This document shows, one piece after another, positions 3 to 55,100 of a stretch of DNA of 64,000 nucleotides. The notes under the pieces were generated by a model, which was given only the letters and a program-made list of their open reading frames with translations, did no database searches and was not told the DNA's origin. The position numbers were made by a program, and so were the translations under genes. This DNA comes from Amoebophrya sp. A120 (taxonomy: Eukaryota; Protista; Dinoflagellata). The stretch's first letter is position 1, and each line of letters opens with the position of its first letter. The DNA lies in the NCBI GenBank assembly GCA_905178155.1, contig CAJINV010000001.1, positions 5,894,750 to 5,958,749 on the forward strand. The letters are read 5' to 3'.

Positions 3-2506
3 ATGCTGAGTCCCGGACAAGAGCAGCGGGAGGTACTATCGAGTGCAGCGGGCTCGCCGGATCAGCCCCTGCAGCGAACGCCGGACCAGCATCGGCTGCA
101 TCCGGATGGTCATAATTTCGCCGGCTCTCCGCAGCCCAGCGCCAGTTTGTCCGCTACAAACGGCCCGCAGCAGCAACAGTCCTCTAGCGCGCACTCCCCG
201 GACCAGCTGAATCATGCGCTAGTTCTGGCCGAGGATCAGCCGTTTGCCTTGCAACAAGGATCTGGTCATCTGCCTTTCGTGCAATTGGCCGGCCGCCGTC
301 CACGGGTGATCGCGCCGAGGTGTGGCGACTTTATCTCTAGTAATAGACAAGTGAAGATGAACACAGCTGCAAATAACGGCCTGGCCGTCGACGTGCTGGG
401 AGGGGTGCCAAGTTCCGTCGCAAACGCGAGCAAGTTCTCCAACAACTCCAACGCGCCGAACAAGGCGTTTCTGAGTTTCCTCGACGGGCCGCGGATCCAC
501 ATCATCCGCAAGAACAAGCCGGTCACGTTATCCTGAGTAAAAACGTACCCACACCAGAATTGTAATGCAGATTTGCAAAGACAGGAAGACTTGTAACGCG
601 CATCCCCATGAGAGCCATTTCCAATCGTGTTTTGGAATTTGTGATGCTGTGAGCAGGATGAGCAGATGAGTCTGTGATGCGGCTGCACTTGCTAACCTGC
701 ACTACAGTGCAAAGCGCAACTTGTCATGCGTGACTCACAAAGCTCCTAGGGTTGTGCTGCAGAATCCCCATCCTGACTCGACGTGCTGGGAGGGGTGCCA
801 TTGCGCCATTTTTCCAGTAGCATGCCGCTCAAGTGCCAACAGGGCGAGAGCCCTGCAAGACCGGGCTGCGAATGTAAGAAATCGGGAAAAAAATGCCGTA
901 TACCTGCGCAATTCCTTATATGTGAATAACAAGGTGGGCGGGCGGGGTTCTTCACATTTTTGGAAACGCCCACCGCCCCGACACAAACAGTATTCTTGGA
1001 AGCGGAGGGGGGGCGCGGGACCCCCATCAAGTCGCCGCGGCGCGAAGCCGCAAATCCTTGGGCCACGTCTACCACCAGAAGTATTCCGCCCGGGGGCCGC
1101 TCCATGAGTCCATGAGTCCAAAAAAAAAATGGGGGCCGGGCAAAAAAAAAAAAAAATCCCCATCCTGACTCTGGTGTGGGTACGTTTTTACTCAGGATAC
1201 ACGTACTTGCTCGACATCCAGGATTTTTCCTGCGCGGATTGGCAACCCAACTGCCGAACAGGGACGCTGGCACTCAGCGCCGGCTCGCACGTGTTCCTCT
1301 TTCGGTTGAACCTCTTTCACGACAGTCTCGAGCAAATTGCGCAGTTTCGGCTGCCCAGCAACCGGCGGGTGCTGGACTTGAAGTGGTCGCCGGACGGGAG
1401 GAGACTGCTGGCCGTGGACTTCTTCGGCCACTACCATGTCTGGGAGCACGCATCGCGGTTGCAACGACCCATCACGCTGAAACCGCCACTGAAGGGCGTG
1501 CTGGCGGGACCTATATCCTGGTTGAGCAGCAAATTTTCGAAGAAAAATAAAAAAGGTGCAACATCATCTTCTGCAAAGAAGAACGACAGCGACAATAATG
1601 CAGCGGCGGAGAGAAATAAAAACTCTTCGGCCACTACTGGCGCTCCAGTATCGCAAATACTGTGGAACCCGGAAGGCAACATGTTCTGCGGGTTCTCGGA
1701 CAGTGGGCACCTGGAAATTTGGGACGCGGTCAGGTACGAGCGCGTGTTCGAAATGAGCGACTTGGATTTGAAGCCGCGGATCGCCGGAAACGTGCCCCAG
1801 CGAGGCAGCTTCGTGTTCGGGTTAGAAGGCGAAGAAGGCGGGAACATGTATGAGGTAAGAAACAGAGGCAGCACTTATGTCTCAATATGCTTTTTTTCTT
1901 CGTCAATGAATCAGCATGTGTGATTTAGTTCACATTTATCGTGACACCCAAACAATCAACCAAACCCATCACCAGGTTCCGTGGCGACTCCGTGACATGC
2001 GGGAGATTTTGGAGGTTCATCTAGGCTTCTCCCTTGAAAACGAACGTTTGATGGACGTGGTCATAGACGCGACGACGCACAGCCGCCTCGGTCTCGTCCT
2101 CGACAAAGGTGTCGCTGTCTGCGACCTCTGGACCTGCGCTAGAGAGGACCCAATGCGGGATCTGAAGCCGCTGGTATGTACTTTAGTTGCCTTTTAAATG
2201 ATAGAAGACCACTTTTCGGATGATATGCTGAAAGCAGCTTCACTTTTGAAAAAAGGAGAGATAGATGAATGATCACGCACGCAAATGTCCACCTCTACAC
2301 TGAAAAACGAACCAAACCAGGCATCCTGGCCAAGCAGATACGGCGAGACAGACCGATCGGGGAATTTGCTTCTTCGCGACACCAAAACCTACACAGCGGA
2401 CAATTTCCGTCCGCTGACGATGAACTTCTGCATGCACTCGAAGGACAGCGCCCTGGCGTCCGTTCTCTGGGAGAACGGAACTTTGGACACGTACGCCGTT
2501 TCTTGA
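3..2506 (+). CDS. WD40/beta-propeller-like protein, 5' truncated by the window; exons approx 3-528, 1205-1853, 1976-2173, about 2285-2506
   Basis: Removing 529-1204 joins KNKPVT|YLLDIQD. WD-like motifs VLDLKWSPDGRRLLAV and VSQILWNPEG...GHLEIWD. GT-AG intron 1854-1975. The last exon boundary is uncertain. Confidence 0.6.
529..1199. mobile_element. TIR introner, family A, containing a nested insertion (780-1154)
   Basis: TIR TATCCTGAGTAAAAACGTACCCACACCAGA / TCTGGTGTGGGTACGTTTTTACTCAGGATA; direct repeat CACGT at 524-528 and 1200-1204. Confidence 0.95.
780..1156 (+). mobile_element. Poly(A)-ended insertion flanked by a 17-bp duplication (possible retroposed or templated insert)
   Basis: AATCCCCATCCTGACTC at 763-779 and 1155-1171; A15 at 1142-1156; absent from family A copies at 4807 and 53905. 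Confidence 0.6.
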
Positions 2507-3236: not shown

Positions 3237-6200
3237 ATGGCGCTACCGCGGACGGTTCCGGTTGACGAGCTCGGCGTGCTCCACACCGAGCGCGAAGCGG
3301 TGGACCCGCTAGGAGCCCGGAACGCCACGACAGCGGCAGGCCCCTCCGCGATGGCGGACCACTCGCTAGTGCCAATCGTCCACCACACTTCTAGCGGAGT
3401 TGGCGTGAGTGCCACTGGTAGTGCTGTGGACCACCACCACCATGCGGCCGCGATCAACCGCAGAACCTACTCCCACGACCTGGTTCTGCGCGACCACTTG
3501 CTCGAGGCGTCGAATCACACGCCGTCGACGGTGCGGAACAACTACGACCGCTACAACAATTTGGATTTTTACCGCGGCGGCCAGCATCCCTACCGCGAGC
3601 CGTGGGTGGTCCTCAAGTCCCCGGAGGAGGGACTTTTAGTTACTTTCGACCCGGTGTCGCACAAGATCGAGCTGCTGCGCAACCACGACCACCACCAGGC
3701 CGGGCTCGACTACTGCCCGCTGTGCGGCCAGGTGCTGGGCGGCCACGGCCCGGCGGCGACGGAGCGGCACCGCTCGATGAGCGAGGCGGGCTCCTCGTCC
3801 GCGGGCGATGCGGCGGTGCGGATGGAGGACGTGATGGAGATCGACGAAACGCCAAATCTATCAAATGTAAAAATGTCTGGGTCTGGAAGATTGCCAGGTT
3901 TGTCATGCACATTTTGCGTGACTCCTGATGTCTGTGATGCATGCCCTAGCGTCACAGATTTTGTGAGGGCTTCCTGATGCTTATACCGCATCACAAATGC
4001 TCTTTCCTTGTAGCAAAACTTGGACTCTCTTTGCTGCTCATGCAATACAGATTTTTTTAGAATCCAAAATCAGCATGACAAGTTGGATTCTTCCAGACCC
4101 AGACATTTTTACATTTGATAAAATCTGGACGCCGCAGACTTCGACTCCTACCTCCTCGTGGAGGGCGCGGGAGGCAGCACCGTAGGAATGGACCACGACC
4201 ACACGCCCGCAGGCTCCGAAAACTCGCGCTCCCGAGGGGCCTCCGGGCGGCCACCGTTGTTCCCGACCAGCAGCGGCGGGGGGTCGACGAGCAGTCGTGG
4301 TGGCGGAAACAAGATGAACAGAAGAACTGCAACTGGGCCGGGAGGTGGTGCTACTGGTGGCTCATCCTCTTCCACGCGCGCGCGGTTCCACCCACCCAGG
4401 GCATCATCTTCGCAAGACCACAACATGATGAACACGACGACATCCACATCTTCTCGCAGCAATCACCGCACGAAATCCCCGGCGTTCAATCCGCAGAAAC
4501 GGAATCCACCTTCGCAGATGCATTCGCCGGACATCCGCGGCCTGCGGTCCCACTCCGAAACTTTTGTGGATCATCATCACCACAACTCCCACCACAACAC
4601 CCCGAATGCCGGCCCCTCGTCGTTTCGGCCCGCACGCGCGGCTCCATACCTGGCACACAACTACTTCACGCTTTTGAGTGCCGTACACGAAGAGGAACAG
4701 GAACTGCGCGAGCAGATGGACACAGCGGTCAATCAAGCCACATTGGACCACCACGGCGGAACCGGGGTATTTCCAGCCTTGGCGGACACCACGAGCGATT
4801 TCGATGTATCCTGAGTAAAAACGTACCCACACCAGAGTTGTAATGCAAATCTGCGTGCTGAAAATGTTTCTCATGCGGAGCCCCATGAGAAGCATTCTCC
4901 AGTCGTGTTTTGCAATTTGTCATGCTCCAATCAGCATGGTATGCTAGATCTGTGATGCTGCTGAGCTAGCTCAAACAGCACTACACTACGAATCCAAATT
5001 TGTCATGCAAAACAGCCAAAACTTGTGGATTTGTCTAGCCGATTCCCCAACTTGACTATGGTGTGGGTACGTTTTTACTCAGGATACGATGGCGGTGTAG
5101 TTCTGGATGACACGACGAGTTTTTATCCGTCCTTGCCCCCACCTCCAGTTCCCGCAGACAGCAGCAGAGAGAACGATGAGGATGACGAGATTCTTTCGCC
5201 GAAAAGCATACAAGACCGACCGGCACTAGAAGAAGGATCATTCCACCGCTCTAGATCCGCCTCCTCACGGAAGAGCCCGCTGCAAGAAGAGCCCGGTGTC
5301 GAGACACTGAACACCGCGAGCGCAAGGACTGGAAGTCTGCCCCGAGCCGAATCCATCCCTACTTTTGACACCAGTGCCCCGCCGGACACCAACCCGGGAA
5401 TCTTTCAGCTCACCACGGGTCCGGCCACGCGCGTGATAAAGCCGCTGGCATCTTCTGGCGGGTCGCAGTCCTCGTCGAAAACCGGACATGGTCCGGGGGT
5501 TGCAGCCGGACATGGTCCTCCGGTTGACTACAACGGTTTATTTGGACCACCTGCAAGAACCGCCACTACCACTTCTTCCGCAGGAGCTGCGACCAACACC
5601 GCAAGCACTAACGCGAAGCAGTACGGGCAGCTGCCGTGCGGCTTGATGAACGACGGCTACTACGAGCGGTTTTTCGTCGAGGTCGAATCTTTGGGACAGG
5701 GAAGTTTCGGGCACGTCTTTCACTGCCGGCACACCATCGACGGCGAGGCGCTGGGGGAGTTCGCGGTGAAAAAGGTCGCGGTGGGCGATGATCGCCAATG
5801 GCTGCGGAAAATCATTCGCGAAGTGAAGGCTTTCGAACGGCTCAACCACCCGAACATCGTGCAGTACAAGCACAGCTGGCTGGAATCCTGGCAGGTGAAC
5901 GCTTGGTGTCCCCGCGTGCCGTTTCTCTTCATTTTGATGCAGTACTGCAATCGGGGTAGTTTGCAGCAACTGATCGATCGCAACTACGAAAAGGTCTGTT
6001 TGGAACAACAGCAACAACAGGGGCGCGCAAAGACGGCCGCGAGTGGTCACCTGGTGCAACTGAACGCGCCCGCGGGCTGTAGCTCGCACAAACGCGGCTC
6101 GCAAGCCGTCGGCAGTAGTTCCTGTAGCAGTGCAGCGCACGCCAACATCCCGACTAGCACTGCGTCACAAAATAGCAGCGGATCGTGCGGCAAAAATGCG

Positions 6201-7235
6201 ACGGAGCCGCCGGCGGTCGGGCTGCCACTGCCACTGATTTGGCCACTGCTGGAAGACATCCTGGCGGGAATTCAGTACCTGCACACGCAGGGGGTTTTGC
6301 ACCGCGATCTGAAGTGTGAGAACGTCCTGCTGACCTCCGACGAGCGGTCCTACCCCTCAACCCGGGCGTTGTTGAGCGATTTTGGTACTGCGGAATGGAA
6401 GCGGGAGGAGCCGGTCCGGCTGCATCGAAGCAACTCCTCGATGGATAATCTGACCATGATGAAAGGCAGTCCACTGCCCGATAGTGTGAACGGCAACGCG
6501 GAAGAACAAGAAACCGAGCGCTACGCCGACCCAAGCACGATCGATGATGTCGACATGGTTCCGCTGAGTCAGCAAGACGCCCGGCCGGTGGAGTCTTCAG
6601 ATCTTCAGAGGGAACGTGGGAATGCGATGAATACGGCAAGCGGTGGCGCACTGAACAATGCGGGGACCACACCACAACAACCACCGCATCGCGTCACCAC
6701 GACGCGGGGCTCCCGGGCTACAGACAGCAGCAACCTCGGCACGACCGAGTACATGGCGCCGGAGGCGTTTGGCGATCTGTATGACGAAAAGAGCGACATG
6801 TGGAGCGTGGGCGTTTTGCTATTCAACATGCGCTATGGAAAACTTCCCTTTTTCGGGCAAAACGTGCTCGAAACCCGGGCACTGATTGAGCGGTTTTCGG
6901 AGAATTACAGTGCGAAGCGAAGCGAGAATCTCCTACCACCCGGTGACGGGGAGGCAGAAGCGCTGCTGCTGCAAGGCCTGATTCTCGCCCTGCTGCAGCC
7001 GGAGCCGTGGAAACGGCCGAGTGCGGGCGAGGTGCTGCGGAACCGCGCCTTCCGCAGCAAGGGCCGCGAGGCAGTAACACGACCACCGCGAGGGTATCAC
7101 ACCCGGGGATCCGACAACGTCAGCGAAATGCAAACGAAAAAGCGGTTCTTGCCGCTCATGGTCGCATCGGCTTCGCCACGACAGCTAGATGAAGAGATGA
7201 AACCCAAAGAAGAGCCCAGGTCGTCCCCTCCATGA
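3237..7235 (+). CDS. Ser/Thr protein kinase, IKS1-like; exons 3237-3858, 4126-4806, 5092-7235
   Basis: Kinase motifs LGQGSFG, FAVKKV, HRDLKCEN, DFG, YMAPE, DMWSVG. IKS1-like HPNIVQYKHSWLE...VPFLFILMQYCN and N-terminal CPLC. Joins ETPN|LDAAD and SDFD|GGVV are in frame after removing two elements. Confidence 0.88.
3859..4120. mobile_element. TIR introner, family B
   Basis: TIR TATCAAATGTAAAAATGTCTGGGTCTGGAAGA; direct repeat AAATC. Confidence 0.95.
4807..5086. mobile_element. TIR introner, family A
   Basis: TIR TATCCTGAGTAAAAACGTACCCACACCA; direct repeat CGATG. Confidence 0.95.
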
Positions 7236-10241: not shown

Positions 10242-10928
10242 TGAGAACAGCAGTCCTCCGTCGTAGCAGGTTGGGAAACTTTCGGATTTATGACGGGGCA
10301 AATACAAATGACCCATCATTTGTGTAATCGAAAGAAACAAACTGCGCATGATGCACGCGGTAGAAGCAAACCTGTAGTGCTTGTTTGCCCAGTGTCTGCT
10401 GGCGCTCCTTTGATTTCAATTTTGATACCCGTTCATGTTCTGCGTGACGATGATCCTGTGGCTGCGTCATTGATTTGATTCAAAACTAGCAATGTCTCGC
10501 AAAAAAAAAAAAATGGTTTATCTTTTCACAAAAGCGAGAGAGGACGAAACTAGGATTGCTGACGACGAGTGACGATTGCGACAAAACAGACTTGGCCCAG
10601 TGCTTTCATCGAAGACGTCTTACATCGAAAACCGCCCACCTGATTTTTTCGACTCCAGTGATAAAGTACTTTTTAATAGATTTCCGCAATAGCACAATGA
10701 AACGAACTCTCTCTCTTTTTATAGACATATTTGCGAACATCGGTGGCAAGAGTAGGAAATCGAAATCAGCTTGTGCGAGTGTGAATGTCTTTCCGCTCCT
10801 CTCCTGAGGAGAACGGCGCAAATACAATATGATGGAAATAAAGTTCATTTGCGGCTGCAAGGCATCTGTTTTTTCAGTTTTTTCAGCCAACAAGTAGACT
10901 CAGACAGACCCCAACTCTATTAAGCACC

Positions 10929-13900
10929 ATGCCGCCTCGAAAAGGCGGGCGCAAGCGGAAGTTAGCGGACGATGACTCCGAGGAACAGTCTCGTGCGCGA
11001 CAACCGAAGCAGGTCAAGGCCGAAATACAACCTGCCGAGGAGGCCGTACCTCCATTCGCGGAGGAACTACCCGCTGCCGGTGGAGAAGCAGAAAATGATC
11101 CTGCTGCCGTACAAGAAACACTTGCCGTGGAGCTCCAGCCAGACGAAGTCAATGAAGAACCAGACGCGTTTGCAGCAAACGAACAAGAAATTGCGGCGCC
11201 AGCTGCACAGCCGCAAGAGTCCGCCGAGTCGTCAAGCAGCTCGTCCTCCTCATCGTCAGCAGCTGCACAGGAGGAAGCACAACATGCGCCCGCCGCCGAC
11301 GAGGAAGCTGTGCCAGCAGACGCTGAAGTAGATGTCATGGAACAGCAGGTCGACCCCCCCGCAGAACCGCCTGTTTCGTCCAATGCAAAGCAGGTTGCCA
11401 GTGCTTCGAAGAAATCTTCCAATTCCTCCTCCTCTTCGTCCTCATCCAAAGCGGCGAACAAAAAAAAGGATCCGCCTTCCGCCTCAAGTAAAAAGAACCA
11501 GCCACTCTCTGCGGGCAAAGTTGTAAACAGTGCCAGCAAGGCGGTTTCGTTTAAGAAGCCGGCGAAGAAGGACACGATTGAAACGTTGCTGCCGCCGTTG
11601 GAAGAGGACGAGGAGAAGCCGGAGCCGAAATCCGCCATGAAGGGCAACAAGGCGAAAACGCCGATGAAGGTGCAGTTCTCGCAGGCCGAAGTCGAAGAGT
11701 TCTCCGCGTCCCAACTGAATGGCACGCCGCGACTGGACCCCGTGACCGGACTTCCGCTCAACAGCTCGGCTCCAACGTCAAGCCAGCAACTGCCCGTCCC
11801 AGGCGCGTCAGCAGCAGCATCCTCGTCTTCTCAACATCATACAGCTGCGTACTACAACAGTGGCAGTGCCTCTGCCCCGCCAGCCTCGTCTATGTTCATG
11901 AACAACAGCGCAGCCTCGGAGCAAGATCAAGAAGAATACCAGCAAGGACCTCCCCCGCCCAGTGGCACCGGTTCGAACGAGGGGTCCGTCCGGCCGTCCG
12001 CGGTTCCCGGGGCGGCGCCCAGCGCGCAGAACAACACGAGTTCCAATCCCTCGTCGGCAGCGTCGCCCGACCTGCCGGACAACAATGTGGTGCAGGTGGA
12101 GAAGGAGCCCGAGAAAAAGCAGCGCCTGATGATCGAGAAGATCGAGCTGGAGAACTTCAAATCCTACGGCGAGAAGCGCACCATCGGGCCCTTTCACCAG
12201 CTCTTTTCCGCGGTCATCGGGCCCAACGGGAGCGGGAAGTCCAACACCATTGACGCCCTGCAGTTTGCGTTCGGAAAGCGAGCCAAAGAGGTGCGACAAA
12301 ACAAGTTGTCCGAACTCATCCACAACTCCAAGGGGAAGGAAAATTTGAAAATGTGCCGGGTCTCCGTCTACATGATGGACATTTTGGACGAGCCCGACTT
12401 TGACGCAGACAAGCCGTACACCGTCGTGCCGAGTACTTCGTTTTTAAAAAAAATTTCAGTTTGTTATTTTTCTGTACCACTAGAATAGTCCTTGTGGTTT
12501 GCTGAAGCTTTTCCTTCGTGTCAGTACTTTGGCAGGTTATCAACAAAGTGAACTCGACAATAACCACACTCCCTTGCAGACACGGAGATCGTTCTAACGC
12601 GAGAGGCAACTTCGAAGAACGTGTCCACCTACTACCTAAACGGCAAGACGTCAAGTTTTACGGAGGTAACCGACAAACTGAAGGAACGCGGCGTGGATCT
12701 CGTGCACAACCGGTTTCTGATCCTGCAGGGCGAGGTAGAGGCCATCTCGCTGATGAAACCCAAGGCAGTGATATGAGGGTGCGCAACTGCTCTGTCTCTT
12801 TCTCATTTGTCATGCAAGAGTTCTGCCAAATTCTGTCTCTGACCCTTGCGGCCGTCTATGCTTGTATGGCAGGTTCTGGAAGTGTGGCCCAAACTGCACT
12901 ACAATCCGGGCGTTGATTTGTCGAGTAATTGCAAACGCGGCGCTTTACTTTCGAGGTGATTTCTGCTGCTACTAGCGCCGTCGCACTGCAAATATAGGAG
13001 CAGATGGAGTAGTTGCTTTTGCACTCTGATAGGCGAAGGAGGGCGGCGAAGACGGGTTTCTGGAATACCTGGAGGATATCATCGGCAGCAACAAGTACGT
13101 GCCGGCCATCCAGCAGGGAAACCGGGACCTGGAGCTGATCACAGGAACGCGGACGGACAAGTTGCGGATGTACCAGATGTCGGAGAAAGCGCGGGAGCAG
13201 ATCAAGCCGCAGTACAAAGAGGCACTGAAGTGGATCGAAACGAAAAAGCACCTGCTCATCAGCGAGGCCTACCGGAAGCAACTGGAGCGCAAGTCCTGCC
13301 GCGAGACCGTGACGGAGGTGCAAAAGTGCCACGACGACGCGGAAAAGCTGGTGCAGGAAAACCAGAAAAAGAAGGACGAAATCGTCGAGAAGCACAAGAT
13401 ATGCATTGCAAAAGTATCGTACTCGTCGTATAAATGCGAGTCTAGGATGACGGATCTGCCTTCTATCTTAGCTGAATCCGCACGACGAATTCATTTTTCT
13501 TCTAGGAAGATAAAATTTGTTACGCAAGTCGTACGAGTTGTACGATACTTTTGCATTTGATACAAGAAGTTGACGGATGAGCATCAAGATCTGCTGAAGG
13601 TTTACCGGGCGAAAATGGACGAGCTCAAGGGATGCCAGGAAAAAATGGCGCAATTCGAGATATCGCAAGAAAAAACTGTTTCACTGTGAACTTGTGATGC
13701 AGAAAATGGATCGCAGCCGTGTGTATCATGCCACACATGCAAGACAATGGATTTCTAGCTGTGTTTTCCCTTAGGAACCCCGCATGACAGATTTTCAGTA
13801 TCACGCGTAACAAACGAAACTTGTGATGCAGATTTTGCAAAATCACCACAGTGAAACAGTTTTTTCGTGCGATACGAGATGGACGACAAACAGTGCCAGC

Positions 13901-23605: not shown

Positions 23606-24280
23606 CGAGACGAACACGTTACACGTTCCGACAGAGACGCTGCAGCTCCCGATTAGTCTGGGTCTGATCCTAGAAGGAAAAGGACGCTATAGGGTTTTGT
23701 ATAGGAACACAGACAGGATAGATTGATATATCAACGGTCACTAGATTTCCATATTCTTTCAAACAAGGAGATGAAGACACAGTCAATGAGTAAAACTAAA
23801 ATGAGTATGGAAGCTTTTACGCGGATTTACTTTCAAAACAGGTTAAACTTAAAACAGCGAAAGAAATCAATGCTGGAAAACAAACAGCACTTCCGTTTGT
23901 CGTTTTTTTTTCGGTCTTCCGAAACAAAACAGGATTCGAGAGAGCTACAGGCTCCCGTTGATATCATTCCCGCTAATCAACGGAAAAAGTGGCGTTGCTG
24001 CTTGACTATTGTTGCAAGTTGTTGTGCCTATGACGTGCTTGACCTTTGCGAAAGCAAGCATGTTGACGTGCACTTGTTCGTTCTCTCTTTTTTGTTTTTC
24101 ATACGTATTTTTCTGGCGGTGAGAAAGAATTCAGATAAAAATCGCAATTTTCGTGTTTTTCCTGCTTCGTAGCAGTCTGCACTGCCATAGCCATTGCCAT
24201 ACCTAATCGAATATGACGAAACCGCAACTCGTTTTTTTGAGAGATCACGTCGTTGCGTTGCATGGTCTGGTTGCTACCGC

Positions 24281-40498: not shown

Positions 40499-43400
40499 AT
40501 GAGAGCGACCCTCATGCCGGATCCGAATCTGACCCTGTCAATCGATATTTTGCTCGCCGGAGTAGCAGCTGCCGTGCTCTACCTGACCGCATCCGATGTT
40601 ACCGGCGAGCACCAGTGTGTGATTCTCGGGCGCCTGCTACCGCTGTTTCTGTTGTTCTTTTCTCTGCGCGTTGCCGTGAGTTGGAGTAAGAGTGGGTCGT
40701 CGACGGCACCAGCGGGATGCGAAGGTGGAACGTGTGAGCAGCGTGAGCAGAGCCGGTATAATCTTGGCCGAGGAGAATCACTGCTCGAAGCGGAAATCGA
40801 AGACGTTGAGCAACTTCAGTCATTAACCGCATCGAAGGTGGCCGGAATAAAGACACCTGGCAAACAGCAGCTAGTGGCGAGCAGAACAAGTTCCTTCTTG
40901 GGTAGCTCCTTTTATGAACCAGAGTCGATCGAGGTCGAGCACGAGGTCGAGGGGAACTACGCAATAAGCAACGCAGCTCCCGTGGAAGCGCTCGGGGCGC
41001 CAGTCCAGGATGTCGTGTTCCTTCCTCCGCAAAAGTACCTAGCGGATGATATTGCTGCTGCCCACGAAGAACACGACGATGGATTTTATGGAAAAGAACG
41101 CGAAATGAAAAACGATGGGTCGTCGTCCTCGTGCCAAGAAGCGCAAGATACCCCGCCGCTCCTGCTCCATGACTTGTTTTCCAAGAAAACAAATTCGCAC
41201 AAGAAGGCGGACGAGAAGGAGACTCCTGGAGGTCTGGGCCATACTGTGTTCGGTCGGAGGATGTCAGAGCCACGGACGTCGGAGGATGTCGGAAGTAGAT
41301 CTGCGCCCCTGCCGTCTTGGAACGACCAGCCTACTTGCCGGAAAATCTTCCCGAGCGGCGAGTCCCCTGCGCTTGTCGCTTTGCGGTCCATTTCCGGAGA
41401 AGCGAGTCGAAAAAACAGCGGACAGCTCGGAGCTGATTTTTTTAATACTAGTTGCAACAGTCGCCGGTCGTCAAAAGCATCATTACCGTCTTCGCCAGGC
41501 CCGCCAACCCCCGTGTGCGCGGCGACCAGAAGTAATACCAAACACGTCGTGGTAAAGATTGATCCGGTTCCGTTTCTCATTTCGCCGGTCAAGGAGGGCG
41601 GAGAGGAGAAGACAGGGCGACAGTCAGGGTCGTTCTACGATGTTGAGCGAAGAAGGCCGTCGTTTCCGAGAGTCGGTGATGTGTCGTCGCTTGCAGGAAT
41701 GGCAAACAGCGACGCTCCTGGAGTAGCGTCCTGCGAAAAACCGCTTTTGAAAAGATCTTCCGACTTTGTGACGACCGCGATGGTGGTTTTGTCGCGCTTC
41801 CTACCGTTCGTTCCTGGCCGGAACTCGAGCATTTTTTCCACTGGGGATGATAGGGCGAGCGTTGACCTTGCCCATAAAAATCCTCGACGAACTACAAGCC
41901 TCAGAAGATCACGCAGAGAAACAACAACGGTTCAACATCTTGCAGAACATTCAAAAATCTCAAGCACCACGCAAAGCAGAAGCAGCAGCTGGAGGGCGGT
42001 TGTACTGCGTCAGCAAGCGCGTCTTGCGCAGTACGAGATTAGCGGGATGCACAGCGCGATCGCCGGGTATTTTGTCGCCATGCTGGCGTTGCCGCCCATG
42101 TGGTTCGTCCTGGTGGTTGCGGCGCTGCCCGGGCTGCGGAGTAGCCAGCTGCTGTACTGCTGCGGCGTGTATGTGGTTTTCCGTTTCATTGTTCCACTCA
42201 TCACCTCCAGCGTTTCCCATTGGCCCATCGACCCTTCCACGGCCCTATTCTTGCAGAAGATTTTTCTGCACTACGGCCCGTTCTGGGACGTCGTGTGCGA
42301 CTTCTGCCGGCCCGTGAACGCTTCTGTTAAAGTTCCGTGGTTCGCACTCTTTCAAACCTTGCTGGACATCATCGCAGCTGTTGCTCTACTCGTTTGGTTC
42401 CTGATCTTGCACGAACGGGGGATGGAAACCGTGCAGGCAGAAACGCTCGCGTCACAAGCTCGCATGTACCGCCGCCGCAAAGTGTTGCACCAGATGCTGC
42501 CGCCGTTCGTCGTGGAGTCGTTTCTGCTGCGGCAGACCGTTTTTTCCGAAGCCATTGGCGACGTCACAGTTGTGTTTGCGGACATCGAGAATTTCACCGA
42601 CCTATTGCAGTACTGCGATTCAGATCGGAAGAGCGTGCGGAGACTCCTGCGGCGGCTCGACCGGCTGTTTTCGCAGTACGACGCGGTCTGTCAGGACTTT
42701 TTCGTGAGCAAGATTGAGAACGTGGGGGAGACCTACCTTGCGTGCGGCGGGCTGCGCCGTCACGTGCAGGCCCGGAACGAGGCGCTGTGCGGAAAATCGG
42801 TGGTGTTGGAAAGGTACAAGCGCTGGTCGTCGACCGTCGGGGCGGAAGCGCTGCGCGCGGACCAGAAATCCGCAATGGACGCGTATTTCACCACCCTGTT
42901 TGCCTGCGAGTTGATCCGCTACGGCGAAGAAGGTGTTGTACGTGGGGCGGTCGGCACGGGAGAAGGCGAGCGTCGAGACGTGGTCGGTGATGACTCGTCG
43001 TCCATCTGTAGTTCTTCTGCGCATACAAGAATCATGATGTCGCCACCATCCACAACGAAAAATGAAGAGCACGGTCTTGTTTCGCCTGACAAACCACCAT
43101 CACGTGTTGATGAAGTCGTCGATGATCATGGTACGGGTATGGTGCCGTTACAAGAAGACCAAGCGCCAGCGTGCTCATCTCGTGAAAATCATGAGGAGAA
43201 CAAGCAGCAAGAGCAACAAGCACCCACAGCAGCGTCGCGTGCCATTTCTTACGTGCGATCAACGACGATCGGCGCAATCCGAAACTTTGGTTCTAGTTCG
43301 ACAGACGAAAAAAAGTCTACGTACAGCAGCGCTGCAAGAAACGATAGTGACGACGTCGTTTCACTCTTTGAGAACATGTTGCAGAGCACCTCTGCTATTC

Positions 43401-45870
43401 CAGTTGTTCCGGCAAGTAGGAGCGTAAACAAGGGGGAAATCTACTTCGCAGAGTCTGAATCTTGTTCCCAACAAGAGAACGCTCCTTCTGGCTGTGGAGA
43501 TGATCTTCTTCTGCTGAAACTAGGTGACCTTCCGACGCCGTGTCGCACCCAGGCGAATGTTCCGCTGGACACAAGAAGTAGAAAACCCGTCGACCAAAGA
43601 ATAGCAAGGCGGCAAGCAATACAGCAAATGCCCTTCAATATCCGAGTTGGAGTGCACACTGGTCCTGCGTGCGCGGGAATTGTAGGCTCGCGGAAGCCGC
43701 AGTACGCAATTTTCGGCGACACAGTAAACACAGCTGCGCGCATGAAGTCCACCTCTTCCAGCAACACGGCCGTGCACGTTTCCAGCGCTACACACGCACT
43801 CTTGTTACGGTGTCGCGGCGCGACGCAGCCCCAATTCAAGACACCGTGTTCGAACGCAGCGGATGATTTTGGACTCAGGATTTCGGGGCCGGTAGACGTG
43901 TTTGCCAAGGGGAAGGGGACGGTCGAAACCTGGTACGTCGAACCGACGCAGAAAAGCAAGACGGAGCTGCAGAGAGAGGGGTTAAATCAAGGAAAGAACA
44001 AGACGGACTCAGCTGAAGACGAGCAATCCTCCTTCGGGAGGCAGGAGAGCTTTCACGAGACAGAAAGTAGTCGTGTAATCGCCGCGGCGGAAGAAAGATC
44101 AGAAACGGCACTGAGCAACCAGTTGAAGAGCTTAACCTCGGACAATACTAGCGGAGCCAACATTTTACTGGGGCGATCGTGCGCGCAGGCCCGTGATCTT
44201 CCGAAACTAGACAGAGAGGAGGACTTTCAAGTTCGCACGAGCGAGCATGGTGTAGTTTACCAAGAGAAGTTTCCAAGCGGCGAAGTAGAGAGCAGCAGGT
44301 TCTTCTGCGGAGATACAACTGACCAGAAACCGACATCTGGGCGGACCAGCATCTTACCAGTGGCGATCATGTCTGACTTTCTGAAAACAGCAGTGATGAC
44401 GTACATTTTTTTGGACACCGGATCGGCCTTTTTTTCGCAGAGCTCACGTCCGCTGTCCACAGTCGCGGCACTGCTTTTGATCGGTCGGATTTTCCTTGCT
44501 GCAGCGTATTGCTTCGCGACACAGGAGTGGCAGTTGGTCGCAGGTGTAGCGCTTTTTGCTTTGTCAGTTGGCGCGAACTTGGCAGTCAGCGCAGAAGCTG
44601 CAACACTCAGCCCTCGAATGGTTTTGTTTTGGATTGCCGTAGCAGCCTTTTATTGCGACGCAGCTTCCTCGACGCAGAAAGGCATAACCGCGTGTGTGGT
44701 TGTGGTCATTCTTTCCGGATCGGCGTATCTTTTACTTTTAGTCACTTTGAGAAGGGACGAGAGCGACAGCGAGTACAGTAACTCCACAACAATCGCGGAC
44801 CTGGTTCTTATCACGCTCCTGAATGTTATTGCAGTGGTAGTCTTCCTTATGAAAAACACTTCTTCTGCTGCGATGAGGAACTCTGCTGCGGATCTCTTGA
44901 CAGCCGAGCGGAACCGCGAAAGTCGTGCGGAACAAATGCTGGCGGACCTCTTGCCGGCGGAGATTTTGCAGAAACTAGCAGGAACGACGAAACTCTCCGG
45001 GGACAGATTTAGTGTGGTGACAAGCCCAAAGAAAAGCAAGTCACTCGTCCACCACTGCTTTTCTGACAGTGCGCTACTTTTCGCAGATATCACGGGCTTC
45101 ACCGCGTTTGCTTCAAAACGGACTGCAGCGGAAGTAGTTGCGGTGGTTACGGGGCTCTTTGCCGCTATTGATGACGCATCTCGACAGTGGCATGCTGTGT
45201 ACAAGGTACAAAATGACTGGATAGGATTTTCTATCCTCTTCTTGTGCGTTGGTGCTGATTTTGTTTTTTGTTGTTGTGCGAACTGTCAGCACCCCATTCA
45301 TTGGAGGAGCCAGTCGAATTCGAAAAAACTGGGTAATTTGCGTTAGGTAATGCTTGCACGAAAAATCAGGTTTGTACGATAGGCGACTGTTACGTTGCAG
45401 CGGCCTTCGGTAATCCTACACCGCGCGAAAACATCGTGCAGATGCTCGCATTCGCATTACGCATGCTCGAGCTCGTGCATGCTAATCAGCAGAACGAAGC
45501 CGAGCCGATCAACGTCCGCGTCGGCATACACTGTGGCTCTTTCGTGGGAGGAGTTTTAGGACAGCGCCAGCTGCGATTCGACATTTGGGGAGAGGATGTC
45601 CGAATTGCAAATTTAGTGGAGCAGGAGGGTCAGCCGGGTGCGATTTGCGTTAGTAAAGCAGTACAGAAGGTCGCTACAGCAGCGGAAGAGCTGATCAACG
45701 GAGAGGATGCGCAACTACTGCTTCTGGATGAATCAAAGTGGTCCTTTCAGTTTCATAGAAGCGTAGCAACGCGCACGGAAGGCAGAAAGAGCAGAGTTGC
45801 TAGTGAGGCACATATACCACCCCCGGAGGTTCTTGAAATTTACAAATTAATAAAATACGCGAGCACTTAA
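40499..45870 (+). CDS. Membrane class III nucleotide cyclase with two catalytic domains, alveolate guanylyl cyclase-like; exons 40499-45205, 45370-45870
   Basis: C1: VFADIENFT, KIENVGETYLA, RVGVHTG...KPQYAIFGDTVNTAARM. C2: LFADITGFT, YK|VCTIGDCYVA, RVGIHCG...LRFDIWGEDV. Two sets of hydrophobic helices. Confidence 0.88.
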
Positions 45871-46456: not shown

Positions 46457-49400
46457 ATGCGTTTCGGCTTGCCGTTGCTCGCCGTCGGGGCATCGGCCCT
46501 GGCGGTCGAGAATTTTGACAATGAGGAGTATTTTGCGGACCCGAGCGAGGCCCTGAACGCCTTCCACTCCCAGTATCGAAGTATGAAGGAAGAAGCCGAG
46601 CATCGGACAAAGCACATGAAGCCGGATGAAGCTCTGGAAATTTTGAAGGCAAAGCTGCCCGAGCACGACCACAGTCACTTGTCCATGCTCGCGCTGAAGG
46701 CACGAGACAACGGCACTTTGAACGTCCAAGAGATGGCAAAAGGTAGTCAGATCTGGCGTCTGTATTTTTTCGTAGTTCGAAGATCGGATTCCGATGCGTG
46801 TAGAAAACTCCCCATCACGAAGTTCCGTGAGTTTAGAAGCCACTTCGCACGTGACAAAGCACCATGTGCGAAAAGACGTTTTTTTTCTAACAAGAGACTT
46901 TTTAAATCCCAAAACCAGGTGTTGTTGCCATCAACAACATGTACAAGGAGACCGATCAGGAGCGCATTACCACCCTGACCACGTGCTCGCAAAAGCTGTA
47001 CGCCATCTACCGCACGAACTTTATGATTGCAAAGGAAATCAAGGGCTTGAACGCAAAGAGCGAGGACAAAAACCAGGTGTACGACGACGCGCAGGGGCAG
47101 AAAAAGGAGTTTCTGGATGACAAGAAGACCCTGGAACAGGAGCGTGAGCAGCTGAAGGTCGACCACGCCAACGACATGAAGGAGCCGCTGGCGATATCGA
47201 AGTGAAAAAAGCCCCCACCCCATATCGGAAACGGAAGATGCGCGAATTTGTGATGCTGTATTTGAGTACACAAATCGACTTGTATTGCTAGAAGGCCAAG
47301 AGACGAAGCTGCGGCCTAAATTGCAGGCAATCTGTCATGCTGTTTCCCAATTCCAGTTGCCGCCTGTCATCCTGGAGCTGCAAGGCTTTCCCACACTGGA
47401 CAGCACTACAGTCCGCATCTTTTGCCTTCTAGCATCACAGAGCTGATTTGTGACCACAAATCTGCATCACAGATTTCCGTTTTGATATGGGGAGGGGGCG
47501 TTTTTCATTGTAATAGGCGAAGGAAGCGGAGAAGGTCACGCAGGAGCGTATTTTCACGGTCATTTTGAAGGGCATCAACGAGAAGTGCGGCAGCGGCGAC
47601 CTGAAGCCGAAGACCAAGAACGCCATGCGGTTCCGCCGCAACCCGCAGGTCGCGCCGGAGTCCAACGCGACCAACGCCACCGCCGGGTCGGCGCCGTCCC
47701 TGGTGCAGAACAGTGAGGAGTTCACCGTCGACGAGGCCCGCGAAATGGACACCGCGGACGCCGAGTCGCGCATGTGCGTCGGCATGCAGCAGGAGTCCAG
47801 CATGAACCGGTTGTTCCTCTCGGTGTTCTCCAGCCCGGAGGTGCAGGAGGCCACGAAGACGGGTCTGGACATGGACTCGCAGAAGGCCATGGACATGACG
47901 CTCGCGAACCTGCGCGCCGCCGAAGACGAGGAAGTCGCGCCCAAGTACCAGAGCCAGGCCTTGTTGCAGAAGTCCCCGTCTCTGCAGGGGCCCTGGTCCG
48001 TCTCGGACGGTACCGACACCAAGTCGCCGATGTGCGGCTCCGTGGAGCAGATCGACTGCGACGTGCTCATGACCATGATGGGTGAGCAGCTGGAGTGCGC
48101 CCGCGAGGAGCTACGGAAGGCTAAGGGTATTAAGCTTTGAACAATTTAAATCTAAATTTGGTGCCGTTTCTCTTCTCCTCAAATCTTGTTGTATGTGCGG
48201 ATCTAACTCTGGCCATCTGTTTTTATCATGAAAAATTCTTGTACGATATCTTCCAAAAATTCACTCCAGGTGAGCGTGCCGCGCTCGAGGACAAGCAGCG
48301 TGAGGAGATGCGTCTGAAGGACGGTTCTATCGTTGCCGCGCAGAAGGCCGCGGACACCCAGCAGAAGTTGATGAACGATGCGCGATCGACCGTGGACGGT
48401 TACAAGAGCCAGATCAGCGACTTGAAGGAGGAGCGCATCCGCTACGCGAAGTCCATGCACCTGGAGAAGACTAAGTGCCACCTGCAGCTGTTCGAACTCG
48501 AGGCCAACGGCTTGTGTGCATGCAAGGCGCTCCGCAACTTCTGGCTCAAGGAGACCCTCTCCAAGGCCGGCGTCGAGGACGACGCTGTCACGGACTGCGA
48601 GGTAATTACTTATTTTGTGATATGATAGCTTCGGTTGCTCGATTTGGGTTTATTTTTTGTGTGTCATTGTTCTTGGAAGTCGTGCGATGGTGATCGGCTA
48701 AATTTAGATATCAACACACTGCCGCCACACAATAACCTCATCTCACCGGTAAAAACCACTCCAGGCTGCCGACACCATGATGCCGACCGGCGAGTGCCGC
48801 ATGGGCCCGAAGGCCACGGGTGAGATTCGCAAGTGCGTTGCCGGGAATAAGATGCCGGAGGACGACGAGCGCTTGCCCAACCGCAAGTGGACCCGGCAGA
48901 TGGAGGGCGAACCGGGCCAGTCCAAGGACCTCGAGTCCCTGGGCGAGAAGCTGTACCTCGAGTGCCCCCCGGAGACCATGATCCTTCCCTGCAACCGCTT
49001 TTTGTGCCCCGTCGACTGCGAGGTCGGCGAGTGGGGCGACTGGCGTGATTGCTCCGCGGAGTGCGACGGCGGCACCGAGCTGCGTGAGCGGTCCGTGGTT
49101 AAGGAGCAGGCCTTCTTCGGTCAACAGTGCCCGGACCTGATCCAAACGCAGAAGTGTAACACCCAGAAGTGTACCGAAAACTGCAAGCTCCACGCCGACT
49201 ACGATGACGAGGGCGAGGGCTGCTTGATGGTGCTTATTACTTAGCCGCTTTTTTTTTGATGATGCAAGTTGTTTTATGGCAAATTTCTTTTATATGCTCT
49301 TCAATGAGAGTCGCATAGCACAAAGTAGATCTGAATTCGTTGTTCTTTTGTCACGCAGGCTTGCGTCCAGCCGCTGTCCAACACGGAGTCTTCGGGCGCC

Positions 49401-51223
49401 GTTGCGTACGAGACCAACTACGAGATGGTGACCAAGCGCGTGCGCGAGCCGGCCCGCGGTGGCGGTGACTGCCCGCACCACCACAGCAAGGCCCGGTACG
49501 CCAAGTCCTCCGTCCTCGCCGCGGAAGACACCATCGACAAGAACATCTGCCCGCAGAACAAGTGCGTCGGGGACGAGGTCTGCGCCGACATGATGGACCT
49601 GATCATCGTGCACGAGTGCTCCCAGGCCACCGGCCGCCTCGGGTGCTGGTTCATGGCGCAATTTGTCGTCACTCTGTTGCAGAAGATCCCGACCGCCTTG
49701 TACGGGTTCCCCACCACCAACGTCGGTCTGGTTATGTTCGGAAACGGAAAGGCCGTCAAGAAGGGCGACAAGTGGGTGGTCAACCCGGCCGTCGAGCAGT
49801 CGCCATTGACTGACCAGGTGAGATGCTGATATCATTTTTGGGGTTTTCGAAAGAGTTTCAATCAGCGTTTTAGGATTTAGGAATTGTAATTGAGGTAAAT
49901 TTCTACTAGTGTTTTTGTCATCCGTGTAGCTCTTGTGTTGGATTTTTTTGATGACCAATCTCCATTTTTCCTTAGAAGGCGATCTCCGATCTGTGACATT
50001 TTGGAAATTGCAACCACTAGCAATCCCAAAAAACGCTAAAAACCACGACAGGCCACGGACCTGTTTTCCGCGTTGTACAACCACGCGAAGAACCTGATGA
50101 CCAAGGAGTCCACCTACAACTACCACCTCGGTTTCTCCAACATGGCCCAGGGCCTGATTGTCGCCGAGAAGTTGCTCGGGGATGCGCGCACCACCGACGG
50201 TGGTTCCGCCATCACCGCCGAGAAGAAGATCGTGGTGGTCACCCGCGGCCGCCGCGTGGAGTGCGGGTCCGCCAAGCAGCGCGCCAAGATGCTGCACAAC
50301 AAGGGCATCGTCGTCGACGTGATTATGTTCGGCCCCAACTACAGCAAGGAGAACTTCGAGTACCTGAACGCCGTCGCCACCTTCCCCACGGAGGGCCACT
50401 TGTTCTACAAGGGTGGGCTGGAACTCCTCTCCCAGGTCGACACCATGCGCGAGATCGCCACCTCCCTGATCCCGAAGGTGTGCCCGGACGCCATCTCCCC
50501 GTCCGCACACCTGAAGACCATGTGCGACGGCGCCTACTCCGACGAGGGTGGCGCGCGAAAGGTATACTTCCTAAATTTCTAGAAGGTGATGGTTTGCTCT
50601 GACGAATGAAATTTAATGGGAGATGCTGGTTAAGTTCAACTTTGTTGGAACAAACCACATGTTGGAGTTAGGGGTCGCACTAACCTATTTCTAAAAAACA
50701 AAATCAGGGCCCGCCGCTCATCGTCGTCCATCGTGGTCGTAACTGCCCGAACTGGAAGAAGAACATTATGGGCGAGAGCACCGAGCCGGTCGACCTCGTT
50801 ACTTGCGCGACCGAGGCCCAGAAGCAGGAGTTCAAGTCTTTCACGTTCAAGCGTGTGCCGGACGGCAGCACCGAGGCAAACTGCTTTACCCACGAGGAAC
50901 AGGGCAAGGAATCCCAGGTCCTCGGCTATGGCGACGAGAAGGAGGCCTACAAGCCGGAAGAAAAGACCTGCAACGGCGATGACTTGGTGAAGCCGGGTAG
51001 CAAGAACCCGGGTGCGTCGCAGGGGTGGGGCCCGCAGCCGCTGGCTCCCGAAACCACGCACTACGAGATCCTGGACGACGCCAAGGACTGCCCCAAGCCG
51101 TATTACAAGTACCACCGGATGCTGACACTGCCAATAGACTTCACGGACGAGTACTTCGACGGGCTGGTCGAGGGTGCCAAGGTCTCCGGTATGATGGGTA
51201 CCGAGGGTGAGGAGAGCTTCTAG
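46457..51223 (+). CDS. Secreted coiled-coil + thrombospondin type 1 + von Willebrand A-like protein (about 8 exons)
   Basis: Signal peptide MRFGLPLLAVGASALA; TSP1 CPVDCEVGEWGDWRDCSAECDGGTELRERSV; vWA-like MDLIIVHECS..., NVGLVMFGN, KIVVVTRG. Confidence 0.75.
47195..47515. mobile_element. TIR introner, family F (inverted relative to 33412)
   Basis: TATCGAAGTGAAAAAAGCCCCCACCCCATATC / GATATGGGGAGGGGGCGTTTTTCATTGTAATA; direct repeat GGCGA. Confidence 0.93.
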
Positions 51224-51998: not shown

Positions 51999-52052
51999 GA
52001 CGCCGCCGTGTAGGTGTGCCTGTATGACGCCGCCGTGTAGGTGTGCCTATAT
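51999..52052. repeat. Tandem duplication, 2 x 27 bp
   Basis: GACGCCGCCGTGTAGGTGTGCCT[G/A]TAT twice, about 100 bp upstream of the next start codon. Confidence 0.85.
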
Positions 52053-52155
52053 GCGTCGTCATCTCTGTGACATTCGCCTCCGGCAGCGCGCTCATCACTG
52101 AATTTTTTGTAATGTGTCATACGCACTAGAAGTAGTCTCAGCAGAGTTCCAAAGG

Positions 52156-55100
52156 ATGCGGCAGCAGATAGCGGCGCTTTTAGCGACCGCCGGGGTTTCG
52201 GGTCGAGAGACCCAGAACCCCGTGGTGACCGGCGCCATGGAGTCCACGTCGCCGGATCTTGGCGAGGTGGCCAGTATGCTCGAGGACATGCAGAAGGGTA
52301 TTCAGCAGCTGCACGATGAGGATGCCTCGCTGTACGAAAAGGAAGCCTGTCACTGCGAAGAAGAGACTTCAAATCTGGCCGAACCGGGGAAGGGCGTGAT
52401 TCCGTTGGTAGAAGCTCGTTACGGGCCGTTTGTGTTTTCTTTTATGTTGTCATTTTCTTTATCTGCGCAGTGTGTGACGCCTGGGTAGGTAAACAGAGCC
52501 AGGGTAGTGGGTATTTGCAAGAACGGGTTGAGTAACATCCCACATGTATGATAACTCAAACCAACTAAAATACAATTTCCAGGCCGTCCTCGCCATCAAT
52601 GAGGCCAGTCAGACGATTAAAGAGAAGACTGCCTTGAAAAAGGACGAGGAAGAGGATCTTGCGACCAACACCGAGGAGCTTGCTGCCGTCCGCAAATTAG
52701 AGAAGGAGCAATCTACGGCCTGGGCCAAGCGAAAAGCTGAGCTGGAGGCTAATATTGCAGAGTCCACTATCCAAGAAAAAAACTGTGTGAGTGTAACTTT
52801 GTGTTGCAGAACATACAACAGAGTTACACCTGTCATGCCAGACAGCCACGAAGTCCTATTTTCATGTGTGTTTTCCCGTACAAGCGACGCATGACAGGTT
52901 TTCTCTGTCATGTAGAGCAAATTTGTGATGCTGTTCCCCAAAGAAACTTACACCTACACACTTTTTTTCCTGGATATCCACACAGGCAGCCAACGCGTTA
53001 GCCGGCGCCACACAGAAATTGCAGTCGGAAAAGCACGCTTCGATCCTCAAGCTGGTTGAAGACATGATGACGGAAACCAAAGGTACATGCTAGCGCTCAT
53101 TTTTAGGTTTTCTAGCTCTTTCCACAAGCATCTCATTTGTACTGGAAGCTGTTTTCAGTTTCATCAATTTCCATTTTAACACCGACCGCAGACACTCTGA
53201 AGACCTACAACACGGAGAAGTCCACGGAGCAGACTGCTCGCGACGACCAGAACGTGGCCAACATTAAGACTGAGGCCGACGAGAAGGAGCAGATCCGCCT
53301 TGGCGAGGAGTCCATCGCGGACTGCAAGGAAAAGATTGGCAAGGCCAAGACCAAGTTGCTCGACAACGAGGGCGAGTTGAAGGACGCGCACCAACAGCTC
53401 GCGGACCTGACCGCGTTTTGCGAGGCCCAGGCGGGAGATTGGGACAAGATGTCCGCCGAGCGCAAGAAGGACTTCGGCGTTTTGGTATCAACTGTAAAAA
53501 TGCCTGGGTCTGGAAGAATTCATGTTTGTCATGCTTGTCTGGCATGACTATTAAATCTGTCACGCACGTTACCCAAGAGCTCCGCTTTTCTGTGATGCAG
53601 AGGCGCAGCTTGTCATGCAGAATAGGCAACACCTAGGAGCTCAGAAACTTGCCATGCTGAGCCAGCATTTGTAGCCTCATCATGAGACGCTACCCAGCAT
53701 CACAAGTTCCCAGACCCAGACATTTTTCCTTTTGATATTTGGAGGTCGCGATCAACGTTTTGACGTGCGGTAAGGAGAAGTGCGGCGTGGCGCCGGACGA
53801 GACGAATTTTGCCCAAGTCTCCTTCCTGCAGACGTCGAAAAAGGCCGCATTCTTGGCGAAGTTTTCCCAGAAGAACCGTTCTCACATGAAGAAGCTGCAG
53901 CAGTTATCCTGAGTAAAAACGTCCCCACCCCAGAGTCAAGATGGGGATTTTGCAACACAAGCCATGAAGTTTTGGGAGCCACGCATGACAAATTGCAGGC
54001 TGTATTGTAGTGCAGTTTAGCAAGGGAAGTCGCATTACAAATCCATCTGCTTATCCTGTTTACAGCATTACAAGTTCCAAAACACGATCGGGAATGCCTA
54101 TCATGGAGATGCGCATTACAAATGCACTTGCGCTTGCAGATCTGCATGACAGCTATGGGGTGGGGACGTTTTCAAATACGATAGCAGTCCGACTCCGCCA
54201 AGAGAAACGCTGTGCGCTCTTTGGTTCGCTTCGGCGAGCAGAACGGAATGAGCGAGTTGCTGCAGTTCAAGAGCGTGTTGAAAAACCAAAAAGACCCGCT
54301 TCTGGGGGCGAAGAATCTGTTGCGCAAGCTGATCGAGAAGTTGACGACGGAGATGGCGCTAGACCAGGGCGAGATGAACAAGTGCTCTACGGCGTTGGCG
54401 GAGTGCACGACCAAGCGAGACTTCGCGCTGGAGGAAGTCAGCAAGGTGAATACTATATCAAGATGTGCATATTTTCTTCAAATCCGAGCGCCTTTTTCTT
54501 TTTCACTCGCTGAAGTCACCTTCTGGGTGACTTTGACCTTTGTTACTTCGGGGTTACGTTTAGGGCCATGAGTTAGAATTCAAAGTCGCGTTCGAAAAAA
54601 AAACACGAAACCCAACAGTTGAAAGTGGAGGCCGAGGAGCTCGGATTGTCGGTCGAAGAGGACAAGAAGGAGTTTGGCGAGCAAGCTATCCCACAGAAAA
54701 AGACAGGCAGGTCAGATTTGTAATGCAAAAATCAATACACAAAAAAATCTGCCATCGGCGAGCCCATAGCATGCTGTTCAGGACACGCAGTGCCGATTTT
54801 TTTGTCTATTTAATTTTGCATTACAAATCTGAGCTGCCTGCTTTTTTCTGTGTGATACAAGCCGTCGAATACAAGGAGAACCAGGACAATGCCAACGAGA
54901 AGACGGAGGTTGTCATCCCCGAAATGGAAGAGGCGTACGCGACCGAGAAGCAGGAGCTGACCAAGCAGAAGACCTGGCTGCACCAGGCCGTCGTGATTCT
55001 GCGGAAGCACTTTGGCATCGAGGAGAACGATTTGCGGTCGGGCAGCAAGGACTCCGCCTCCGGCCTCACTGAGGGCGTCACGGAGAAGTCTACGTCGGCC

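Follow-up and report, generated by a model that had tools for sequence, protein, structure and literature searches.

Introner elements in coding exons of Amoebophrya sp. A120 and the position at which they are removed from SMC4 transcripts

Results

Elements interrupting the coding sequence

The stretch of Amoebophrya sp. A120 DNA analysed here (64,000 nt of contig CAJINV010000001.1, called the window below) contains 39 elements that interrupt eight of the 14 genes counted in it, most often SMC4, and that mostly begin with TAT, end with ATA, carry terminal inverted repeats (TIRs) and are flanked by a 5-bp direct repeat (DR), perfect or decayed. All coordinates are positions in the window, and all elements and host genes are on the plus strand. 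An SMC4 exon was 100% identical to the deposited A120 protein (P0001), which maps through the window; for the A25 ortholog the identity is 68%.

When TAT...ATA pairs with TIRs were sought without regard to the DR, 32 were found (counting cross-pairs), and 10 shuffles gave 0-4; a profile scan returned 27 pairs against 0-2 in 8 shuffles, with no perfect DR in any shuffle pair. After removal of the cross-pairs, 26 elements found from DNA alone were left (hereafter young), 23 of them with a perfect 5-bp DR. Another 12 (decayed) showed up in relaxed scans or as gaps against the deposited SMC4 protein, and one further decayed copy at 26865-27052 (TAT...ATG, perfect DR) was revealed by a frame break, its removal being required to restore the frame of the gene starting at 24281. 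Altogether, 24 of the 39 elements have a perfect DR, 36 have TAT...ATA ends, and their length is 134-671 bp (median 256, for the 38 elements measured). A GT-AG pair is available in any register in only two of the 39. The initial annotation of this DNA had listed 38 elements in 8 of 13 genes, almost all of them TAT...ATA with TIRs, 24 with perfect DRs and most without GT-AG in any register; this description was reproduced, host gene number included, although the counts are now 39 elements and 14 genes, the added element probably being that at 17948-18331.

Deletion of the element plus 5 nt, also predicted by that annotation, gave a full frame in all eight genes. Deletion with 0, 3, 4, 6 or 7 additional nucleotides truncated the frame at 30 of the 37 sites tested, the other seven being too close to the C-terminus to discriminate, and the frame at 27167 was restored only once 26865 was also deleted. 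With the elements left out, coding sequence accounts for about 64% of the window, and all 26 young elements were inside it (p ~1e-5, two of the gene lengths being estimates). In an independent set of 139 elements, found in 131 metagenome loci without using the DR, the repeat was exactly 5 bp in 121 cases, 4 bp in one and 6 bp in none, ruling out duplications of 4 and 6 bp; shuffles gave no elements. In sequencing run X1 (DNA), the elements reached a repeat depth of thousands or more.

Statements on published work refer to the passages and supplementary rows covered. In those of Farhat et al. (2021; PMC7789003), 65% of the A120 introns are non-canonical, with DRs of 3-5 nt and intron borders given as unknown, and the inverted repeats consist of TAT, seven variable bases and at least three A. 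The 5-bp repeats of the window fall within that range, and its young ends have A at positions 11-15 in 18-26 of 26 per position, as in the published repeat. The window elements are these published introner elements, which they resemble in the organism, the TAT + 7 + A-run ends, a 5-bp DR example, a length of about 240 nt, RNA-supported removal, a predicted hairpin and the comparison with miniature inverted-repeat transposable elements (MITEs), so that the phenomenon is already known. The initial annotation had pointed to that study, and the protein identity and the TAT and DR description make the match closer than it assumed.

Position of the cut

Because only decayed copies of the repeat differ in base, the position of the cut is invisible at perfect DRs and visible at decayed ones. 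The register was tested by keeping upstream DR bases 1 to k together with downstream bases k+1 to 5, an assay informative only at imperfect DRs. For the 16 elements spanned by the deposited SMC4 protein, the mismatches were 15, 9, 8, 4, 0 and 2 for k = 0 to 5, so that cuts after DR base 0, 1, 2, 3 or 5 were ruled out and only k = 4 fitted 16 of 16. At individual sites, the decayed element at 15556-15876 (DR 1/5) is compatible only with a cut after base 4, those at 14904-15137 (DR 1/5), 16811-17029 (DR 2/5) and 17948-18331 with a cut after base 4 or 5, that at 12772-13031 with a cut after base 3 at least, and that at 19845-20060 with a cut after base 1-4. Other decayed SMC4 copies are those at 14631-14824 (DR 2/5), 15179-15312 (DR 1/5), 15911-16191 (DR 4/5), 16519-16776 (which starts with TAC) and 20212-20486 (DR 4/5). 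The element at 17948-18331 is the most decayed of all, with TAC...ACA ends and a GT donor without AG.

A contig of run X3, which is RNA by guess only, brackets the same position. It (record 13) restarts at base 5 of the downstream repeat of 17948, which requires k of 4 or more, and ends at upstream base 1 of the element at 19203-19558 (DR 3/5), which places that cut before base 5 (k at most 4), and the lengths agree; the read-placement tool sets joins leftmost, as was observed at GT-AG introns. At the decayed element 21798-22045, a Met conserved in 49 of 49 motif-matching homologs (53 examined) requires downstream DR base 5, that is, k at most 4. Therefore, the intron is N-TAT...ATA-NNNN, with one cut 1 nt upstream of TAT and the other 4 nt downstream of ATA, as established for SMC4. 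The earlier proposal of precise removal from the mRNA by a mechanism reading the TIR ends holds as regards removal in RNA, seen for five elements, but the cut lies away from the TIR ends.

In this register the donor dinucleotides are AT (12), CT (11), GT (9) and TT (7), and none of the 39 elements has the GT(GC)-AG ends of a U2 spliceosomal intron. Table S4 of Farhat et al. (2021; PMC7789003) gives, among the predominant pairs, 9 of 9 NT-NN for A120 and 9 of 9 TT-NN for A25, with T at +2 throughout, in agreement with the T at +2 of the mapped register.

Outside the window, 18 elements of the metagenome loci have imperfect DRs, and of these only L052 separates base 3 from base 4. Its two junction residues were predicted before the homolog search. 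The best match of L052 was an A120 protein, only 84-93% identical, and the locus likely comes from a related lineage and not from A120 itself. At one of the two sites, the A120 ortholog fits the predicted residue (k of 3 or 4).

Removal from RNA and retention in DNA

The contig evidence is limited to positions 10900-23700 of the window and to the matches listed, 15 of 683 joint rows; contigs lose rare variants. The RNA coverage is that of SMC4, with its junctions 14631-15911, 16811, 19845, 20212 and 21798 and all the other genes (16 elements) lying outside it. Among the matches listed, X3 contigs omit five elements (12772, 16252-16501, 16519, 17948 and 21157-21365) together with GT-AG introns. 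Because the GT-AG introns are absent from the same contigs, these are taken as spliced transcripts. In contrast, run X1 has an unbroken 5069-nt contig over 14156-19224, with the elements in place, at a depth of about 44. Therefore, the removal takes place at the RNA level. Next to two of the skipped elements are microexons between adjacent introns, one of 12 nt (16506-16517) after the element at 16252 (DR 4/5) and one of 7 nt (21370-21376) between the young element at 21157 and a GT-AG intron, both present in the X3 contigs.

Some low-depth X3 pieces keep elements. One contig over 16781-17063 (depth 23) retains the element 16811, with neighbouring spliced contigs at a depth of about 100-130; the element may be an old copy that is spliced slowly, or the contig may be DNA. 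Two raw RNA runs, X9 and X10, gave 132 and 3 matching reads, all on repeated elements and uninformative on splicing; X9 matched elements at 90-95% but no SMC4 exon.

Signals at the ends and in the interior

In the mapped register, T at +2, A at +3 and A at -7 are each invariant (39 of 39). The donors of the 30 canonical GT-AG introns of the window have A at +3 in 25 cases, being mostly GTA, and the 3' ends of these introns are rich in A and C, without a pyrimidine tract. The match of the T at +2 and A at +3 with the GTA donors is suggestive only as evidence for a signal. Base 4 of the DR was G in 46 of 96 coding-oriented sites versus a background of 30.5% (p 0.0003), whereas the mirror C at base 2 was found in 24 of 96 (p 0.0015 for the comparison with the mirror); in the outside loci alone the G was also above background (p 0.0025). 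The orientation classifier called 20 of the 20 callable sites in the window correctly, though it had been trained on the same exons. G also precedes 25 of the 30 canonical donors. As the mirror C at base 2 is lacking, the G at base 4 is a transcript-strand bias akin to the G before canonical donors, with no palindromic target preference.

The elements form families that insert in both orientations (24/20, 11/7, 5/4 and 5/3), which places the signals in their symmetric ends. Unrelated families share the motif TGT[ACG]ATGC, with 81 occurrences inside elements against a single one elsewhere; it is present in 25 of 26 young and in one of 13 decayed copies and may be a transposase site. The constant 5-bp DR, the two orientations and the shared internal motif fit an origin from non-autonomous, MITE-like TIR transposons, which is likely and had been proposed in the initial annotation. 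No transposase matching the element ends was found among seven unpaired TIRs of the outside loci, where no frame within 730 nt exceeds 157 aa, no genome-wide search having been made.

The predicted pairing between the two ends had a median of 17.5 in young and 14.1 in decayed copies, against 1.0 in canonical introns, whereas simulated random decay to similar DR identity left a pairing of 1.5, with 0 of 24 copies at 11.5 or above, and swapped ends one of 2.8. Since decayed copies pair above the simulated decay despite having lost the motif and 22 of 52 DR matches, the end-to-end hairpin looks as if it were kept for splicing, as far as predicted pairing can tell.

Inventory of elements and host genes

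SMC4 (10929-23605) gave a model of 1769 aa with 23 elements and eight GT-AG introns, and the frame is intact and collinear with homologs once the elements are removed. The deposited A120 protein covers its first 1377 aa; the frame continues past the end of that model (window 20170) and reaches 1769 aa, the added part including a C-terminal head with 60-65% identity to homologs, so the deposited annotation is truncated, and a search for a deposited protein covering this C-terminal part found none. Besides the copies described above, SMC4 carries young elements with perfect DRs at 13400-13562, 13661-13874, 13923-14184 (from the largest family, in reverse orientation, with no in-frame stop if retained), 19613-19789, 20773-21087 (GT-AG possible in another register), 22564-22825, 23007-23267 (interior 93% identical to that of 19203) and 23321-23571. 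Having 23 of the 39 elements where 6 were expected (p 1e-7), SMC4 shows a marked clustering, with none in its first 1.5-kb exon. The nucleotide cyclase gene (40499-45870), of equal coding length, has no elements.

The gene at 357-2506 (401 aa), which we take to be WD40-like, carries one young element with a perfect DR at 529-1199. Its 671 bp include a 375-bp insertion (window 763-1171) flanked by a 17-bp repeat (copies at 763 and 1155); the insertion starts with a 22-bp copy of the host gene's own first exon (389) and looks like a capture during gap repair. A presumably protein-kinase-like gene at 3237-7235 (1148 aa) has two young elements with perfect DRs, at 3859-4120 (a member of the largest family) and 4807-5086. 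In addition to 26865, the gene at 24281-27974 (1080 aa) has a young element with a perfect DR at 27167-27419. Pfam searches of pieces of this gene and of the first exon at 7778 returned no family, and an Rfam search of the window no match. The gene at 32144-34692 (about 263 aa, with an uncertain C-terminal frame) holds four young elements, at 33412-33734, 33798-34009 and 34363-34622 with perfect DRs and at 34052-34302 with a DR of 4/5. The remaining young elements, all with perfect DRs, are those at 38059-38313 and 38381-38687 (a family of its own) in the gene at 37519-39679 (455 aa), at 47195-47515 in the gene at 46457-51223 (1149 aa), and at 52768-52976, 53486-53737, 53905-54183 and 54687-54857 in the gene at 52156-55529 (661 aa).

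Two weak TAT...ATA candidates outside coding sequence, at 23729-23963 and 61273-61633, perhaps introns of untranslated regions, were excluded from the count of 39. From 61829 to 64000 an open frame encoding lysine/alanine/proline and serine/glutamate repeats in tandem, without elements, extends beyond the end of the window.

Some element interiors are 94-97% identical between the window and outside loci (3859 with L084, 4807 with L026, 53486 with L110, 47195 with L069 and 23007 with L125). As to the organism of those loci, the one protein compared was only 84-93% identical to its A120 match. A recent exchange of elements between lineages is possible, with an ortholog call that rests on one gene.

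Discussion

Proposed mode of removal

On balance, we favour by a modest degree a reading in which introner elements, probable non-autonomous DNA transposons, are removed at a fixed offset by a relaxed spliceosome guided by a hairpin. A DDE transposase acting in trans would bind the TIRs and the internal motif and insert the element, in one orientation or the other, with a 5-bp duplication. In SMC4 RNA, the first four bases of the upstream DR and the last base of the downstream one stay, and the coding sequence is exactly restored. The paired ends are predicted to juxtapose the cut sites, substituting for recognition of G at +1 and of AG, and the spliceosome would read U at +2 and A at +3 like the GUA donors of this genome, and the A invariably present at -7 relative to the 3' cut is a candidate branch point. 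Once fixed, copies would drop their transposition signals, with the ends and the hairpin remaining under selection. A relaxed U2-type spliceosome is favoured because of the strand-specific G, the T at +2 in both strains, the retention of spliceosomal proteins (most are present according to Farhat et al., 2021; PMC7789003) and the precedent of Fritillaria borealis, whose introns, also derived from MITEs and non-canonical, are removed by an adapted U2 spliceosome, although their ends are of the AG-AN type. The stronger statement that, in tens of thousands of introns, the A120 spliceosome dispenses with both G at +1 and a 3' AG, with the hairpin as a ruler, U+2/A+3 as the donor and an A of the terminal ATA as the branch point, is put forward tentatively, as somewhat less than an even bet.

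Several points weigh against this reading. The register rests on one gene, on a deposited model built from transcript alignments and on a run guessed to be RNA, and the other site of L052 fits k of 3 or less, unless a change from Lys to Arg took place. TAT and ATA are also transposon termini, so the T at +2, A at +3 and A at -7 may coincide with them, the decayed ends having been partly picked by those letters, and canonical introns have A at -7 in only 18 of 30, within A-rich sequence. In the outside loci alone, where the orientation could be called at only 70 of 121 sites, the asymmetry of base 4 against its mirror is borderline (p 0.056). As for the hairpin, a milder random decay (0.3) gives a pairing of 6.6, with 6 of 24 copies still pairing; the pairing is weak (4.6 and 7.1) in two decayed elements that are spliced; old copies may derive from families with other repeats; and, if formed as modelled, the hairpin would bury the donor bases. 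The role of the spliceosome is inferred.

The same elements and register could instead be served by a non-spliceosomal endonuclease cutting at the hairpin base (leaving a 1-nt 5' and a 4-nt 3' overhang), with a ligase joining the exons, as has been proposed for the nonconventional introns of euglenids. The hairpin predicted in decayed copies, the function of both orientations and the lack of constraint at +1 and at the last two bases all suit such an enzyme, as do the report that U1 snRNA was not found (in the passages of Farhat et al., 2021; PMC7789003) and the euglenid introns, which pair their ends and are thought to exit as circles. However, the strand-specific G at DR base 4 resembles canonical exon ends, T is at +2 in A120 and A25 though their repeats start differently (TAT vs. 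TTA), the element 17948 is skipped with a GT donor and weak pairing, and the enzyme itself is hypothetical, so that we consider this explanation a serious contender but a rather doubtful one. Little credit is given to a spliceosome using linear end signals only, or to a cut varying by element, with the hairpin as a leftover of the TIRs. Farhat et al. (PMC7789003) do describe splice sites whose position with respect to the hairpin varies, Gozashti (2025; 22 of 58 rows) gives mixed sites and repeat lengths of 2-5 in A120 families, and one L052 site would agree with a cut after base 3 or earlier. Nevertheless, a single register fits all 16 SMC4 sites and the pairing exceeds that of the decay simulation, and the published scatter could be due to perfect repeats, which leave aligner-called borders ambiguous.

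Still less credible is excision from DNA in the manner of the internal eliminated sequences of ciliates, the alternative kept by the initial annotation, or the view of these loci as dead pseudogenes. The guessed status of X3 leaves room for it, and rare element-free DNA would be compatible with the 15 of 683 joint rows listed, given what contigs lose. Against it, the X3 contigs that skip elements also lack GT-AG introns, as spliced transcripts do, and the X1 DNA is continuous through the elements. The ciliate sequences are absent from the expressed DNA copy, whereas the window elements are kept in X1 contigs among the matches listed. Neither did the case foreseen as refuting the initial annotation, retention in mature mRNA or pseudogene loci, agree with the five elements skipped in X3 and the intact SMC4.

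Relation to other introns and transposons

Compared with the published A120 system, for which Farhat et al. (2021; PMC7789003), in the parts covered, describe an unknown or variable border and no clear end signature, the SMC4 data give one register, with T at +2 and A at +3, an internal motif and hairpin retention. The register, motif and hairpin retention are additions to that system, drawn from one gene and one outside assembly. No statement of a register or of lariats in Amoebophrya was found in the literature passages covered, figures and several supplementary rows being outside that scope. The introners of Micromonas, Aureococcus, Symbiodinium and Polarella (PMC9860276, PMC11282704, bioRxiv 2020.10.14.339549) share TIRs, target duplications, an unchanged mRNA and, for some, both orientations, but carry or recruit G(T/C/A) and AG, whereas the window elements need neither G at +1 nor AG. 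Euglenid nonconventional introns (PMC11170887, PMC11282704) are alike in paired ends (predicted here), absence of GT-AG, repeats resembling target site duplications and a presumed MITE origin, and differ in their consensus and offset; circular products are reported for the euglenid introns.

As to the transposon of origin, the TA..TA and TNT..AYA termini of IS3EU/GingerRoot and IS481EU (PMC10045372) fit TAT...ATA, but the duplication does not: it is 6 bp in the former, a length seen in 0 of 139 outside elements, and about 4, 15 or 25 bp in the latter, against 4 bp in one and 5 bp in 121 of the 139 (15 and 25 bp were outside the scan). In the rows covered of Gozashti (2025; 22 of 58), many A120 families are classed as DNA elements with TIRs and mixed sites whose superfamily is unknown, one of them with integrase-like open reading frames.

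Significance

How about 65% of Amoebophrya introns are removed without GT-AG has been a question since 2021, partly because perfect DRs hide the cut. The fixed register N-TAT...ATA-NNNN specifies donor bases, a candidate branch A and a hairpin geometry, so that the mechanism becomes testable, and annotation could apply one rule instead of dozens of apparent dinucleotide classes. If the proposed removal is true, the transposon would be rendered harmless in any exon; and if it is the work of a spliceosome that requires neither G at +1 nor AG, an element could insert at any coding site, in either orientation, and be spliced out without a trace.

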